Shown here one piece after another: positions 2,906 through 36,843 of a DNA stretch of 64,000 bases (within the stretch, counting starts at the first letter, position 1; the number at the start of each line of letters is the position of its first letter). The DNA comes from an uncultured Clostridia bacterium. Its GTDB lineage: Bacteria; Bacillota; Clostridia; TANB77; CAG-508. The notes under the pieces were generated by a model, which was given only the letters and a program-made list of their open reading frames with translations, was not told the DNA's origin and ran no database searches. The DNA is taken from positions 40,735 through 104,734 of the forward strand of contig CALXVM010000003.1 of NCBI GenBank assembly GCA_944392105.1. Reading direction: 5' to 3'. The position numbers were made by a program, and so were the translations under genes.

Positions 2906-3169
2906 CTACAATATATCTTTATCTATTGATATAACAATTTTTATATTAGGATTTTTATCATATTTTTTTATTATATTTTCCGAAAAACTTGCAACATCAT
3001 TTGATATAATTATTGTTTTATAGTCTTCATTAATTAACTTTTCTAACATTTTGTCTGAATCTTCTAGGTCTTGTAGTTTATATACATCTAGCCCTAAAGC
3101 CTCTGGCATTTTAAAACTATCTTTATCTTTCTCATATTTAAGCCAAGAAATTTTCATACTAAATTTCAT
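2906..3169 (-). CDS. small hypothetical protein (weak resemblance to V-ATPase subunit F-like fold)
   Basis: 87-aa ORF. The pattern LGLDVY...LEKLI...YKTIIISNDVA...IKIVISI loosely recalls ATP-synthase F/14-kDa subunit proteins. This is not a secure call. Confidence 0.35.
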   Translation of the reverse strand: MKFSMKISWLKYEKDKDSFKMPEALGLDVYKLQDLEDSDKMLEKLINEDYKTIIISNDVASFSENIIKKYDKNPNIKIVISIDKDIL

Positions 3170-3267
3170 TCCTTTCTCGCTTTATTCTAAAAGGCACACA
3201 AAGAAAAAAATGTTAAACAACTTTTATATTATTGTTTAACATTTTTTTATTTTTATACTATTTAATT

Positions 3268-3639
3268 TTATTTTTCTTCTTCAAACAAAGCTGTAATATC
3301 TGGGTCTTGCTTTAATTCTTCAGAGGCAATGTACTCTAATGCTCTTTTATCTTGCTTTACGGCAGCTAAAGCAATGTCTTTGTCTTGTCTTAATTCATGA
3401 CTCGCATATTTTAATATTAAACCTTTTCTTGTAACTGCTTCTAAAACTATTTCTTTATCATTTCTTATTTCTTTAGATCCATAGTATAATGCTTGTCCAT
3501 CAACTTTTACTGCTGCTAGCATTACGTCTCTATCAGCTTGTAATTTCTCATTTGCTTTTAAACTTTCTAGTATATATTCATTATCTGTTGAATTCTTAAT
3601 TTTCTCTTTTATTTCATCTAAAGTTTCCAATTTTATCAC
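3268..3639 (-). CDS. DUF4116 repeat protein
   Basis: Three repeats of the D(R/K)(D/E)(V/I)xLAAVKxDGxALxY type: DRDVMLAAVKVDGQALYY, DKEIVLEAVTRKGLILKY, DKDIALAAVKQDKRALEY. Confidence 0.7.
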   Translation of the reverse strand: MIKLETLDEIKEKIKNSTDNEYILESLKANEKLQADRDVMLAAVKVDGQALYYGSKEIRNDKEIVLEAVTRKGLILKYASHELRQDKDIALAAVKQDKRALEYIASEELKQDPDITALFEEEK

Positions 3640-33462: not shown

Positions 33463-33891
33463 ATGGTAAGGCGCTTATACATGCTTGCAGAAGAGCAAAA
33501 TGTAGCTTCATTATTGGAGCTTGCAAGCGTGGTTATGGAAAACGACGAGTGTCATTTCTTCCTTCGGTACAATTGGCACAACTCTGACTTTGCAAAAGAA
33601 GTAAACTTTTCTAAGTCCTTCGCTTGCTTAGTCGACACTGTACGAAACTGCGGTTTCATGAACCTCGCAAACGTATTTAAAAACTGTCACTTTGATGCAG
33701 AAAGCAGTTGCGAAACTGGTTTTATTACTTTCAAAACAAATGATAATTCAATGGTTTTCTCCTTTGCTTTTATCCGTAGCGAAAGTAAGAACCAAAATCA
33801 AAATCTGCTCCGCATCTCCGGTAGAGTTGAAAAATCCGTCGCCGCCAGCGACAATGACCTGCTTGGTTATTTGTTGTCGCTTGGAATTTAA
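33463..33891 (+). CDS. orphan 142-aa Cys-rich protein, compositionally foreign (GC-rich, C-ending codons)
   Basis: AGGAG sits 8 nt before the ATG. A 142-codon open frame is unlikely by chance at this composition. Codon usage is rich in C-ending codons such as TAC, AAC, GAC, TTC and TGC, unlike all neighbours. No family recognised. A structured-RNA alternative is not excluded. Confidence 0.5.
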   Translation: MVRRLYMLAEEQNVASLLELASVVMENDECHFFLRYNWHNSDFAKEVNFSKSFACLVDTVRNCGFMNLANVFKNCHFDAESSCETGFITFKTNDNSMVFSFAFIRSESKNQNQNLLRISGRVEKSVAASDNDLLGYLLSLGI

Positions 33892-34081: not shown

Positions 34082-34516
34082 TTATAAGCTTTGCTTAAGC
34101 ATCCATAATATTTTAGTATATTCTAAAATGTACTCATCTACTAGTGATGATGTTCCATATTGTTTTTCTTTCTCCGCTTCTTCTTTTATTTGATTAACTC
34201 TTTCTAGTAATGTTTCAAAATCGTTTATAATATTTTTATAAATTTCACTTGAGCAAATTTTTTCATCTTTTGCTTCTGCAATAGTCGTTTTTTCTAAATA
34301 ATCTTTTAATGTTCCCAAAGGTTGTGCATTTAATGTTAATATATGTTCTGCCACCTCATCAATTTGGTCATTTATTTTGTTATAATATTCTTCTAATTTT
34401 TCATGTACTACAAAAAAGTCGCTACCTTTAACATTCCAATGATAGTTTTGTAATTTACGATAAAATACTGCTAAATCTGATAAGTATTGATTTAGCTCTT
34501 TTATTAATGTTTCCAT
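34082..34516 (-). CDS. dps: Dps-family DNA-protecting ferritin-like protein
   Basis: LQNYHWNVKGSDFFVVHEKLEEYY... ferroxidase-site pattern. 144 aa with an AGGAGG RBS. Confidence 0.88.
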   Translation of the reverse strand: METLIKELNQYLSDLAVFYRKLQNYHWNVKGSDFFVVHEKLEEYYNKINDQIDEVAEHILTLNAQPLGTLKDYLEKTTIAEAKDEKICSSEIYKNIINDFETLLERVNQIKEEAEKEKQYGTSSLVDEYILEYTKILWMLKQSL

Positions 34517-34607
34517 ATAAAACCTCCTAAAAATAATACTTATATTAGTATTTACAATTTTTATAAGGTTTATACAGTAAATTATAATATTAATTCTCTT
34601 AACGTAG

Positions 34608-35084
34608 TTATCTTTTCAAATTCTTTAGTATATTTTTCATTTCAATTACATCATAAAATGGAATGTTAATTCCCTTTTTGGCTAGCTTTATTACATTTAT
34701 GGATGTTTCTATTATTTCATTCTTTAGACTTTCTGTTATTTCTACATCTTGTTTTCTATTTTGATATTTACTTTCTATGTACTCCTCTGTTGTTGGAAAG
34801 ATATTTTGTATTAAAAATGCCTTTTCTTTTCCTAAAACTTTACCAAAAACAAAGTTATAAACTTTTTTTCTCTTTTTTTTCTTATTTTCATATATACCTT
34901 TGTATTTATCAACTTTACTTGAAATTGGAACGAACCATATTATCTCTTCATTTTCTGGGTCATTAAAACAAAAATAGCAAGGTCTTTTATTACCATTTTC
35001 TTTATTTTGCATTAATTTATAGCATTTAAATATGTCAAAAAAATCATCTTTTATAAAGTAAAATTTTCCGTTTTCTACTTTCAT
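34608..35084 (-). CDS. type III toxin-antitoxin system toxin, ToxN/AbiQ/CptN-superfamily endoribonuclease (158 aa)
   Basis: True start MKVENGKFYFIKDDFF at ATG 35084 behind GAGG. The motifs KFYxI..., NKRPCYFCF, IWFVPISSKVDKY and AFLIQNIFP follow the ToxN/AbiQ pattern. It is preceded by a terminator and tandem RNA repeats. The ORF-track version 34608..35282 wrongly extends through the repeats. Confidence 0.8.
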   Translation of the reverse strand: MKVENGKFYFIKDDFFDIFKCYKLMQNKENGNKRPCYFCFNDPENEEIIWFVPISSKVDKYKGIYENKKKKRKKVYNFVFGKVLGKEKAFLIQNIFPTTEEYIESKYQNRKQDVEITESLKNEIIETSINVIKLAKKGINIPFYDVIEMKNILKNLKR

Positions 35085-35102
35085 TCTTACCTCATTTCCA
35101 AC

Positions 35103-35133
35103 AAAAAATCTACCTTCGAAAAGGTAGATTTTT
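35103..35133 (-). terminator. Rho-independent terminator between antitoxin repeats and toxin gene
   Basis: 10-bp stem AAUCUACCUU / AAGGUAGAUU with a UUCG loop and a U6 tail on the minus strand. Confidence 0.85.
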
Positions 35134-35135
35134 AT

Positions 35136-35245
35136 TAACATTTGTCCACCTACGCATTTATTTGTCGCAAGTAGGGTTGCGAGTAACATTTGCACACCTA
35201 TGCACTTGTACCCCGCAAATAGGGTTGCGGCTAACATTTGATTTG
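35136..35245 (-). ncRNA. type III antitoxin RNA: 2 full + 1 partial tandem repeats of 48 nt
   Basis: Units lie at 35136..35183 and 35184..35231, with a partial unit at 35232..~35245. The period is exactly 48 nt and about 36 of 48 positions are identical. CAAAUGUUA is conserved at every unit boundary. The internal hairpin UCGCAA/UUGCGA versus CCGCAA/UUGCGG is kept by a compensatory pair. Confidence 0.8.
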
Positions 35246-35280
35246 GACAAGATACATTTTGTATCTTTATTATTATATTC

Positions 35281-35310
35281 ATTATAACCTTTTTTATTAA
35301 TAAAAGTCAA
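35281..35310 (-). promoter_or_regulatory. promoter TTGACT-18-TATAAT of the type III TA operon
   Basis: On the minus strand, the -35 is at 35310..35305 and the -10 at 35286..35281. It is followed by a short 5' hairpin at 35267..35249. Confidence 0.6.
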
Positions 35311-35403
35311 TATCTTTTGTTTATTTTTTATTAGAAGTTACTTTCTCTTAATATATTTTATTTTTCAATTGACCAGAACTTTTTTACAACTCTAATTTAT
35401 TCT

Positions 35404-36843
35404 CTATAATCTTTTTTCTAAAACTTTTTTTGATGAAATTTTTATCTTCTTTACTCCTTTTATTTGCAAAACATGTTTATTTTCGATTTTTCTTTTTATA
35501 ATATAATCAACTGAATATGCAGACATTATAAACATAAATATTTGTGCTGTATATGCATATCTAGGTGTGCATTCAATTAACAAATAAACTCCTGTATATA
35601 CCAATAAAATTATAAGTAATAGAAATTGTTGATTACTCATATTTTTTCTATTAATCCATATTGCTAGTATAGATAACAATATAAATACATAAATAAATAG
35701 TTGGTTAATTTCATCTACAAGTTTTATTAAAGCATTGGCAGATATTTGTTTTCCTAATATATGTATAGATTTATCATTTAAATATGATAACGACCATCCT
35801 ACATCTGATGTTGCCCAAAAATGTTGTAATTTGTGTATAAATAATCTAGGTAATTTATCTATTGAGCCTATTGTATAATTATAAACCAAATTTTTCTTTT
35901 CACTTTCGGTTAAATTAAAAAATTCTTTTCCTAAGTTTTTATTATAGTCTCCCATTCTTTCTTGGTTAAATCCTACTGCAAATTTGTATAAAGTCTCTGT
36001 ATTTTTTAGTCCATTTGGACTAAGTCCACTATATTGAAATCCTAAAGAAACTATAGTAGTAATACTAAAATATACAATAGCCATAATACCTAGATTAACT
36101 AAACTTCTTTTTAACATTCCTTTTTTATATATTAATAATGTAAATAATATAATAGAGGTAATTGTAACTATAGCCTCTGGTCTTATTATATTTCCAATGG
36201 CTAAGCAAACTCCTATAAGTGTAAACTTTAATTTTTCGTTTATTTTTTTAGCTTTTTTCGAAATTAATAACCAAATGGCCAACAAGAACATAAAAGATGA
36301 TATATGTTGATTACTTAAAACACTATTAAATAGTAGTGGAAATGGAAAAAACATATAACAGCAACTTACAATTCTTGCAGCTTTTTCACTTGTAAATTCT
36401 TTTGCAAGTAGGTATACAAATAGTACAATTCCTGCTGAAAATAAACAGTTAACTATTTTTATAAGTAATGGTCCTTTTACAATTAACATTAAAATATACA
36501 TAAACATGGTATAACCCATTTGATATCCATATCTATTCATATATTCAGATTCTGTAATTACATTCCAGTTTCCATCAAGCATGTCATTTGCCATATTATA
36601 CATTACTGCATAGTCACTTTGTATGGGTGTTTTAAATATAAATACCACAATTAGCCTTAATATAAATGCTACTATAAATAGAACTAGTGCAAATTTAGGA
36701 ATTTTTATTTTATATGCAATAAAAATAATTCCTCCTAAAGTTACTAGACTTATAATTGGAAATTTAAAAAAATGACTGTAAAAGGCTAATCCTAATAGTA
36801 TAAATAATAAATAGATTAAAATTTTTCTTATTTTTTGATTCAT
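35404..36843 (-). CDS. GT39/ArnT-like (GT-C fold) membrane glycosyltransferase
   Basis: 479 aa with about 11 TM segments and a layout resembling PMT/ArnT-type enzymes. No catalytic motif verified. Confidence 0.55.
   Translation of the reverse strand: MNQKIRKILIYLLFILLGLAFYSHFFKFPIISLVTLGGIIFIAYKIKIPKFALVLFIVAFILRLIVVFIFKTPIQSDYAVMYNMANDMLDGNWNVITESEYMNRYGYQMGYTMFMYILMLIVKGPLLIKIVNCLFSAGIVLFVYLLAKEFTSEKAARIVSCCYMFFPFPLLFNSVLSNQHISSFMFLLAIWLLISKKAKKINEKLKFTLIGVCLAIGNIIRPEAIVTITSIILFTLLIYKKGMLKRSLVNLGIMAIVYFSITTIVSLGFQYSGLSPNGLKNTETLYKFAVGFNQERMGDYNKNLGKEFFNLTESEKKNLVYNYTIGSIDKLPRLFIHKLQHFWATSDVGWSLSYLNDKSIHILGKQISANALIKLVDEINQLFIYVFILLSILAIWINRKNMSNQQFLLLIILLVYTGVYLLIECTPRYAYTAQIFMFIMSAYSVDYIIKRKIENKHVLQIKGVKKIKISSKKVLEKRL

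Follow-up and report, generated by a model that had tools for sequence, protein, structure and literature searches.

In Eubacterium rectale the CptIN toxin-antitoxin complex has been solved as a 2:2 heterotetramer ring (PDB 4RMO; Rao et al. 2015, PMC4627078); its toxin, CptN, resembles Kid (Rao 2015, PMC4627078). Repeats of the cptIN family are 40-48 nt long and occur in 1.9-3.4 copies (Blower 2012, Table 2, PMC3401426); published accounts describe them as near-identical. Tested CptIN loci stabilised plasmids. They gave no protection against 6 coliphages (PMC3401426), and likewise a later study found no protection by CptIN against more than 200 coliphages. So far phage defence has been reported for no CptIN system, whereas it is established for ToxIN and AbiQ.

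The locus examined here resembles ToxIN (Pectobacterium, Bacillus) and AbiQ/antiQ (Lactococcus) in its gene order and, by prediction, in an endoribonuclease toxin which itself processes the repeat RNA, an A-rich cut site, a pseudoknot antitoxin and a terminator that sets the antitoxin:toxin ratio. Pectobacterium ToxN cuts at AA^AU. ToxIN is a 3:3 heterohexamer with triplex pseudoknots, in contrast to the 2:2 ring of CptIN with its A-minor twist. ToxI units measure 36 nt, against 48 nt in our locus, and the toxIN family has a mean of 2.8 copies (range 1.9-5.6; PMC3401426). TenpIN also has long repeats of 39-57 nt, few in number (about 2 copies), and an A-rich stretch, and the non-identical repeats of tenpI were overlooked by tandem-repeat finders (PMC12283969); its toxin belongs to another family, whereas ours is a CptN by model score. 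The type II toxins of the Kid/MazF/CcdB fold are alike in predicted fold, but they have protein antitoxins and no sequence similarity to the toxin described below.

Layout and conservation of the cassette

We analysed 64,000 nucleotides of DNA from an uncultured Clostridia bacterium (the window). Positions 35310..34608 of the minus strand, about 0.7 kb, very probably form a chromosomal type III toxin-antitoxin cassette of the CptIN family. Its elements, in the order in which the minus strand reads, are:

35310..35281, minus strand: sigma-70-type promoter (predicted function), TTGACT at 35310..35305, 18-nt spacer, TATAAT at 35286..35281; 11 of 12 consensus positions
35267..35249, minus strand: 5' leader hairpin AAGAUACA-AAA-UGUAUCUU; 8 bp, 3-nt loop, -5.7 kcal/mol, z = -7.6
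35240..35193, minus strand: CptI repeat 1 (R1), 48 nt; S1 CCGCAA/UUGCGG, S2 CCUAU/AUAGG, L2 loop GGUACAAGUGC
35192..35145, minus strand: CptI repeat 2 (R2), 48 nt; S1 UCGCAA/UUGCGA, S2 CCUAC/GUAGG, L2 loop CAAAUAAAUGC
35144..35136, minus strand: partial third repeat CAAAUGUUA, conserved in related loci
35133..35103, minus strand: intrinsic terminator between antitoxin and toxin; arms, UUCG loop, U6
35093..35090, minus strand: Shine-Dalgarno GAGG, 5 nt ahead of the ATG at 35084
35084..34608, minus strand: cptN, 158 aa, ATG at 35084, stop ending at 34608; predicted Kid/MazF-fold endoribonuclease

R1 and R2 are given in the CAAAUG register. This architecture is kept in about 45 related loci, and both the layout and its conservation are established in silico. 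Each element listed by a first-pass annotation of the same DNA was found on the minus strand, exactly where it had been placed or a few bases away at most. Its reading of the locus as a toxin-antitoxin module of type III is supported by this architecture, by the toxin's pass of the NF047359 model and match to 4RMO, and by covariation in the RNA.

Promoter-like sites number 15 in the 2-kb region and 14.9 in shuffled sequence, so that a single match is not above chance. What makes the promoter credible is that 41 of 45 related loci have a promoter-like motif in the corresponding position. Directly upstream of the first putative cleavage-site motif lies the leader hairpin, and 43 of 44 loci are predicted to have a hairpin at this position; the diverged loci L032-L036 and L043-L048 have wholly different stem sequences. 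The conservation of this hairpin is modestly new, and the E. rectale cptIN locus lacks one.

The terminator has 13-bp arms (35133..35121 and 35116..35104) that are 100% complementary, followed by six U (35108..35103), and folds with -13.6 kcal/mol (z = -5.1). Of 45 loci, 43 have a stable hairpin with a T-run here. A simple consensus terminator scan reported none at the locus, probably owing to pairing of the U-run with the A-run of the stem, whereas inverted-repeat search and folding did find it. By analogy with ToxIN, partial read-through would be expected. An SD-like motif occurs in 44 of 45 loci.

DNA common to the window and 50 related loci is confined to about 35330..34626, and comparison of flanking genes and synteny with these 50 loci revealed none in common. 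Because the shared DNA ends at the cassette edges and the flanks differ, the cassette is a self-contained module. Dozens of uncultured gut Clostridia carry it, in genomic surroundings unrelated to one another, with 85-91% DNA identity over the whole cassette. A search for a second CptN-like gene within the window found none, and tblastn against INPHARED phages gave no match. In the window the cassette is surrounded by housekeeping genes; some relatives adjoin Cas1/Cas4, AAA_21 or NERD genes, and some sit on elements with a serine recombinase or relaxase.

The toxin belongs to the CptN family

An HMM search with the 158-aa protein matched the NCBIfam CptIN equivalog NF047359 at 167.6 bits (cutoff 90; E 1.6e-49), over model positions 1-150 of 150, which places it in the same family as the E. 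rectale toxin. Likewise, phmmer aligned residues 4-141 with 4RMO, the crystal structure of E. rectale CptN (E=3.9e-19), with 37% identity over 139 aa. An AF2 model of moderate confidence (pLDDT 74.6) has 4RMO_A as its best Foldseek match (E 1.7e-7, TM 0.70), followed by MazF and CcdB. Membership of the CptN family is established in silico. The first-pass annotation had grouped the protein with ToxN, AbiQ and CptN together; the last assignment stands, and membership of ToxN/AbiQ was rejected, as neither the Pfam ToxN_toxin model nor the PADLOC ToxN/AbiQ models gave a match at E<=1; no other PADLOC model matched the protein either.

In a 12-sequence family alignment the active-site residues Ser55, Ser56 and Tyr107 are invariant, as are R34-P35, W50, P53 and FLIQ, Tyr107 being Tyr104 of the solved CptN. 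Among 29 homologues of 76-87% identity, 68 residues do not vary. The third position of the Ser-Ser/Thr-Arg triad is Lys57, where E. rectale has Arg53, and is K, Q or R across the family. The E. rectale residues that specify the scissile adenine, Asp81 and Ser85, are replaced by Leu84 and Lys88 and vary across the family; they are a trait of the E. rectale enzyme, not of the family, and their replacement suggests that boundary specificity differs. Since both are replaced, the cut-site chemistry may differ from that of E. rectale CptN; the cut would fall at either AA^AU or AAA^U.

A repeat RNA with a predicted pseudoknot fold

The antitoxin array (35240..35136) consists of two 48-nt units and a 9-14-nt partial copy, 2.2 copies in all. 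R1 and R2 stand at 48-nt spacing and are 75% identical, whereas the E. rectale repeats are identical to each other. As the first-pass annotation had claimed, a conserved motif containing AAAU marks the repeat boundaries: CAAAUGUUA is present at three of three. The partial repeat would supply the third AAAU boundary needed for release of R2. An array start at 35245, as placed earlier, takes in a second, degenerate CAAAU. The 48-nt array escaped Tandem Repeats Finder (score 30) and was found by a separate repeat search.

Both the unit length and the copy number fall within the published cptIN range (PMC3401426), and therefore the earlier suggestion of a distinct subfamily falls away; the cassette is an ordinary member of the CptIN family already described. 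It shares with that family the succession of promoter, about two repeats plus a partial one, terminator and toxin, as well as gut Clostridia as hosts. What is modestly new is that the two repeats differ so much from each other, yet each is conserved across species. R2 is the more conserved unit, its orthologues being 96% identical on average in more than 30 species-level genomes, and its exact sequence recurs in 21 loci, window copy included. R1 evolves faster (88% identity, 21 variants), and its pseudoknot is always kept.

Rather than a single hairpin, the repeat RNA is predicted to form an H-type pseudoknot with two helices. A covariation test drew on 40 related loci, which gave 33 distinct repeat units; 98.3% of the pseudoknot cells were paired, against 26-50% with partners slid. 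Compensatory changes on both sides were seen at 8 of the 11 pseudoknot pairs, a value reached by 0 of 500 shuffles; this covariation is established in silico. The compensatory U-A to C-G change noted earlier in a 6-bp hairpin is real, and a second one, in the second helix, had been overlooked, so that S1 and S2 both differ between R1 and R2 by compensatory changes. When single units or the whole leader were folded by nested MFE, the pseudoknot did not emerge and pairing between the repeats was proposed in its place; we rejected this in favour of the fold supported by covariation.

The solved 45-nt CptI has this same topology, with a 5' tail of 6 nt, S1 of 6 bp, L1 of 1 nt and an A-rich L2 (xAUAAAUG); L2 reads AUAUAAAUG in E. 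rectale and, in R2, AAAUAAAUG. The three additional nucleotides of our unit lie in L2 (11 versus 9 nt) and a longer 3' tail. In its L2, R2 retains the A29, U30, A31-33 and G35 that the solved RNA has, whereas R1 has G at the A33 position and C at the kink position U30, and because of these changes R1 may be the weaker inhibitor. In both systems the boundary cut falls beside an adenine (in the window by prediction), in CAAAUGU here and in UUGA^AAGU in E. rectale. R1 matches the clade covariance model, which holds S1 only, at 68.9 bits by construction; the same model gave 8 bits on E. rectale CptI (E 0.09 in 221 nt) and no significant match to the E. rectale or Oscillospiraceae/Lachnospiraceae CptI loci. 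Thus homology of the RNA to E. rectale CptI rests on topology, not on sequence. Antitoxin RNAs are known for quick divergence. An Rfam search gave nothing over 2 kb at E<=10, nor over the entire window when gathering scores were applied.

Competing readings and a proposed mechanism

A mechanical list of open reading frames contains a 224-aa frame (35282..34608) with the peptide QMLAATL.../QMLLATL..., and public gene calls for the exact protein give 204 aa, with repeats fused to toxin; callers likewise report products of 164-233 aa for many relatives. Were this frame real, an N-terminal peptide repeat would precede the nuclease domain and there would be no RNA antitoxin, which we regard as next to impossible. 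Start points and extension lengths vary between close relatives (called lengths 152 to 233 aa), and many loci have an ORF of 155-160 aa only. The upstream frame is broken by 1-nt indels in repeat 1 and the terminator, and repeat variation compensates base pairs, against a coding reading. Furthermore, a strong terminator and a conserved SD and ATG lie inside the supposed long ORF, and the solved homologue (4RMO) begins at the equivalent Met. The long ORF is judged spurious because of the variable call lengths, the frame-shifting indels and the substitutions that follow the pairing, as the first-pass annotation had proposed for the fused frame. Attenuators, too, classically have a structured leader and then an intrinsic terminator ahead of an ORF, and the RNA could then be a riboswitch or attenuator controlling terminator read-through in cis instead of a processed antitoxin acting in trans. 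We consider this extremely improbable: Rfam has no match even at E<=10, and the leader consists of one pseudoknot in tandem duplicate plus part of a third copy, with the boundary motif conserved. This is the hallmark of type III antitoxins, and the topology and A-rich loop of the RNA agree with solved CptI. The protein downstream, moreover, is in the CptN family, a member of which binds and cleaves its own repeats.

We think it very unlikely that this is a remnant, domesticated or in decay, with an attenuated or inactive toxin and an RNA that has lost its role. Decay is visible in relatives, two of which carry in-frame stops at codons 108 and 112 (L012 and L027) while five are partial copies (L039, L040, L041, L050 and L051), and the window toxin itself has Lys for Arg53 and Leu/Lys for Asp81/Ser85 of E. 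rectale CptN. Repeat 1, too, is altered in L2, at sites of importance in the solved RNA. The window copy, however, is intact in its ORF, promoter, terminator and both pseudoknots, and 34 of 38 close loci retain an ORF of 155-162 aa. The 68 invariant residues of the toxin speak against decay, as does the conservation of R2, which exceeds that of the cassette as a whole. A divergent reading of the antitoxin itself, which we hold as conceivable but doubtful, is that the two repeats of this clade are now different RNAs with separate roles, and that the leader hairpin and terminator act as helix mimics. An asymmetric CptN2:R1:R2 ring would then be possible, as would a division of labour between a tight inhibitor and a labile sensor or processing scaffold; alternatively, the divergence would reflect selection against misfolding and recombination between neighbouring repeats. 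The helix mimics would give all three cleavage sites the same setting of helix, single strand and helix.

On the preferred reading as a functional CptIN cassette, its cleavage, neutralisation, stoichiometry, terminator leakiness and biological role may be pictured by analogy with E. rectale CptIN and ToxIN. A constitutive promoter would yield a transcript of the leader hairpin and 2.2 tandem 48-nt repeats. Most transcripts would end at the intrinsic terminator, giving antitoxin precursor in excess, and read-through transcripts would carry the SD and cptN. CptN would cut the precursor within the invariant AAAU of CAAAUGU at three boundaries, releasing two 48-nt RNAs. Each would adopt an H-type pseudoknot structure (S1 6 bp, L1 1 nt, S2 5 bp) with the 11-nt A-rich L2 placed in the minor groove of S1, and would remain on the toxin in a closed protein-RNA ring with its active sites blocked. 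Should transcription of the locus stop or the labile RNA be lost, free CptN would cleave cellular RNAs at A-rich sites and arrest growth. Possible triggers are loss of the element, host shut-off in phage infection, and stress.

The role could be addiction and stabilisation, or phage defence. The label of abortive infection given to the locus earlier is unsupported for CptIN, in view of the failure to protect against the 6 and the more than 200 coliphages.

The CptI fold was previously based on one crystal structure and two mutants, and the 33 distinct natural variants are a ready covariation data set for the pseudoknot. Three standard tools miss or mis-handle the locus, in that gene callers run the antitoxin together with the toxin ORF, Rfam has no CptI model and Tandem Repeats Finder is blind to diverged repeats. 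About 800 homologues are present in databases, nearly all nameless and a few called 'hypothetical protein'; many have been given a spurious N-terminal extension. Their sources are uncultured Clostridia from the guts of humans, rabbits, chickens and mice, and they bring to the CptIN family a large clade that had no annotation.

Layout of the locus and identity of its toxin

We read the layout of the locus from window 34400..35500 on the minus strand, where direct reading recovered every element named in the first-pass annotation:

35310..35281, minus: promoter TTGACT-18-TATAAT, matching the consensus at 11/12 positions
35267..35249, minus: leader hairpin AAGAUACA-AAA-UGUAUCUU (-5.7 kcal/mol, z -7.6)
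35240..35193, minus: R1, first 48-nt direct repeat of the antitoxin RNA (CAAAUG register)
35192..35145, minus: R2, second 48-nt direct repeat (CAAAUG register)
35144..35136, minus: partial third repeat CAAAUGUUA, carrying the third boundary copy
35133..35103, minus: terminator with a perfect 13-bp stem, UUCG loop and six U (repeat search and folding)
35093..35090, minus: SD GAGG (sequence reading)
35084..34608, minus: cptN ORF of 158 aa, ATG at 35084 and end at 34608 (ORF list)

Promoter-like sites in the AT-rich surrounding region are as numerous as in shuffled sequence. The repeat search gave 75% identity between R1 and R2 in the window. Tandem Repeats Finder did not detect the 48-nt array at the cassette, nor did a simple terminator scan detect the intrinsic terminator at 35133..35103.

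The cassette is a new member of the known CptIN family. The 158-aa protein matches NCBIfam NF047359, an equivalog model for the 'type III toxin-antitoxin system CptIN family toxin', from end to end (167.6 bits; cutoff 90). Neither Pfam ToxN_toxin nor any PADLOC model matched the 158-aa protein. Its sole PDB sequence match is 4RMO, CptN of Eubacterium rectale (E 3.9e-19), with 37% identity over 139 aa by tblastn. Foldseek with an AF2 model of the toxin (pLDDT 74.6, pTM 0.73) returned 4RMO_A as the only significant match (E 1.7e-7, TM 0.70), followed by MazF and CcdB, an order that agrees with the reported resemblance of CptN to Kid (Rao et al. 2015, PMC4627078).

An alignment of 12 sequences, 37-76% identical to the window protein, shows that N27, K28, R34, P35, W50, P53, S55, K60, F90-L91-I92-Q93, P97, Y107 and G138 are invariant (12/12), that F8, Y9, D13, F40, Y61 and N94 occur in 10 or more of the sequences, and that position 56 is Ser or Thr. 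The catalytic Ser51-Ser52 and Tyr104 of E. rectale CptN correspond to S55-S56 and Y107 of the window toxin, whereas Lys takes the place of Arg53, and Leu and Lys that of Asp81 and Ser85, the residues that recognise the scissile adenine in the E. rectale enzyme.

The length of the 48-nt unit had been taken as a possible sign of a distinct subfamily. The 33 cptIN loci of Blower et al. 2012 (PMC3401426) have repeats of 40-48 nt (mean 44.8), 1.9-3.4 repeat copies and toxins averaging 149 aa; the window locus lies within these limits and is therefore a cptIN member rather than a new subfamily. The label 'abortive infection' is likewise unwarranted, since E. rectale CptIN had no effect on >200 coliphages but stabilised a plasmid, raising its retention from ~50% to 100%. 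By analogy with E. rectale CptIN and ToxIN, the toxin would process the repeat RNA and form with it a closed 2:2 ring; the antitoxin RNA would be labile and the RNase would be released.

That routine annotation masks the antitoxin proved correct, because database products of close relatives vary from 152 to 233 aa and the exact window protein is recorded, in four metagenome contigs sharing the synteny of the window, as a 204-aa product without a Pfam hit. In the mechanical ORF list, the cptN ORF is stretched to 224 aa from 35282 and runs through the repeats. NF047359 would now let NCBI's PGAP name the toxin.

Related loci and the fold of the antitoxin RNA

Scanning a single genome for each species yielded 51 related loci, nearly all in MAGs of uncultured gut Clostridia sampled from humans, rabbits, chickens, mice and deer. 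The 260 nt preceding their toxin genes follow the plan of the window locus. Among 45 loci, the promoter is conserved in 41, the terminator in 43 and the SD in 44; a leader hairpin is predicted in 43/44, and in diverged loci its stem sequences are unrelated.

We extracted 82 repeat units, representing 35 distinct sequences, and aligned 33, leaving out two 50-nt units of the related loci L044 and L045. An H-type pseudoknot was tested in which helix S1 pairs columns 10-15 with 23-28 and helix S2 pairs 17-22, inside the S1 loop, with 40-44. Across the 33 units, 98.3% of cells are standard pairs, compared to 26-50% with partners slid by 1-3 columns, and in 8 of the 11 pairs both partners vary. S1 occurs as CCGCAA/UUGCGG, UCGCAA/UUGCGA, UCGGAG/CUCCGA and CGCCA/UGGCG, and S2 as CCUAU/AUAGG, CCUAC/GUAGG, CCUGU/ACAGG and CUUGU/ACAAG. 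None of 500 shuffles reached the observed values. The hairpin described earlier is S1; covariation supports S2 as a second helix. Nested MFE folding did not recover the pseudoknot, and Rfam has no family that matches the antitoxin RNA.

We compared these repeats with the E. rectale locus, represented from gut metagenomes by L056 (98% identity to the 4RMO chain). The numbering follows Rao 2015 (PMC4627078): G13 is loop L1, A27-G35 is loop L2, U30 is the kink and G44-A45 carries the cyclic phosphate. The E. rectale repeat reads AAGUUU-ACCACU-G-ACCGAU-A-UGUGGU-AUAUAAAUG-GUCGGGU-UGA, and window R2, aligned on S1, UGUUAC-UCGCAA-C-CCUAC-UUGCGA-C-AAAUAAAUG-C-GUAGG-UGGACAAA. Both have a 6-nt 5' tail, a 6-bp S1 and a 1-nt L1. 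L2 of R2 retains A29, U30, A31-A33 and G35, whereas L2 of R1 (GGUACAAGUGC) has C for U30 and G for A33. A covariance model of the clade units placed the same landmarks in the same order on the E. rectale RNA, with a score below significance (8 bits, E 0.09 in 221 nt). Judged by register, the cut would fall within the invariant AAAU, as AAA^U or AA^AU.

Diverged repeats and the leader hairpin

Less ordinary is that the repeats of the cassette are mutually different and individually conserved. Within a locus, R1 and R2 are on average 75% identical (range 61-90%), whereas identity among orthologues is 96% for R2 (8 variants in 37 loci) and 88% for R1 (21 variants). Repeats are identical or near-identical in the more distant relatives L036, L044 and L045. 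A 2025 survey (PMC12283969) reported near-identical toxI and cptI repeats and presented non-identical repeats as a tenpI feature. In the E. rectale-like cptIN locus L118 (1340-1450), whose toxin shares 80% identity with 4RMO, the two 45-nt repeats differ from each other and show compensatory changes (ACCAC/GUGGU vs ACCGC/GCGGU; ACCGA/UCGG vs ACCAA/UUGG); therefore the phenomenon is wider than the clade of the window.

Also less ordinary is the leader hairpin directly before the first boundary, present in the window clade and absent from the E. rectale locus. The terminator starts ~7 nt after the third boundary, and hairpin and terminator may give each AAAU site a helix on either side.

The first boundary is present in duplicate, UGUCCAAAU-CAAAUGUUAG (35249..35231, minus), and the leader hairpin with its trailing UGUCCAAAU looks like a repeat end, where the S2 helix precedes UGGACAAAU; the leader may be a degenerate partial repeat with a simple hairpin in place of S2. 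A second TATAAT lies within GAAUAUAAUAAUA (35280..35268, minus), which links the -10 box to the leader hairpin. Conservation of this stretch is unusually high throughout the close clade and extends to L033, L034 and L036; the stretch may serve as an alternative -10 box or form the initial transcribed sequence. AAAUG, the pentamer of the three repeat boundaries, recurs directly 5' of the cptN SD (GGAAAUGAGG, 35097..35090, minus); it is kept in most close loci and missing in L017, L030, L031, L033 and L035. The pentamer might have arisen by chance in AT-rich DNA, or it might offer the toxin a cleavage site in its own mRNA at the ribosome-binding site.

Genomic context and mobility

The distribution of the cassette is that of a small, horizontally moving TA cassette. 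DNA common to the window and 50 relatives is limited to ~35330..34626, with 85-91% identity for the closest relatives and 76-82% for L030, L032 and L033, and none of the 50 shares flanking genes with the window. In the window, housekeeping genes flank the cassette (AspRS, AdhE, Dps/ferritin, a PMT_2-like glycosyltransferase, an ECF sigma factor and MurT/GatD). The cassette adjoins large serine recombinases in L007, L016 and L017, a Mob_Pre relaxase and a NERD protein in L025, Cas4/Cas1 in L027 and an AAA_21 ATPase in L012; housekeeping genes surround it in other relatives. The 2012 survey placed cptIN only on chromosomes (Blower et al. 2012, PMC3401426). We found distant homologues of 31-44% identity on seven plasmids (H1-H7), each annotated 'hypothetical protein', and a 40%-identical CptIN on a 48.7 kb predicted viral contig (L136:3800-4480, IMGVR_UViG_3300045988_164715), complete with promoter, leader hairpin, two repeats and terminator. 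No CptN homologue was found among INPHARED phages.

L012 and L027 carry intact repeats and a damaged toxin, with in-frame stops at codons 108 and 112 (3001-3480 in each), L039 a toxin with an internal deletion, and L040, L041, L050 and L051 only part of the cassette, a pattern that fits toxin decay with the antitoxin retained. MAG CAOJXR01 holds two CptIN loci, L027 and L036, with toxins sharing 88% and 61% identity with window CptN; their repeat sequences differ, and one locus lies directly downstream of cas4-cas1-cas2.

A 142-aa ORF at window 33463..33891 (plus strand) lies in a patch of raised G+C, 38% vs 23-30% nearby. It has no Pfam or Rfam hit; in four syntenic metagenome contigs (L132-L135) it appears as a called gene.
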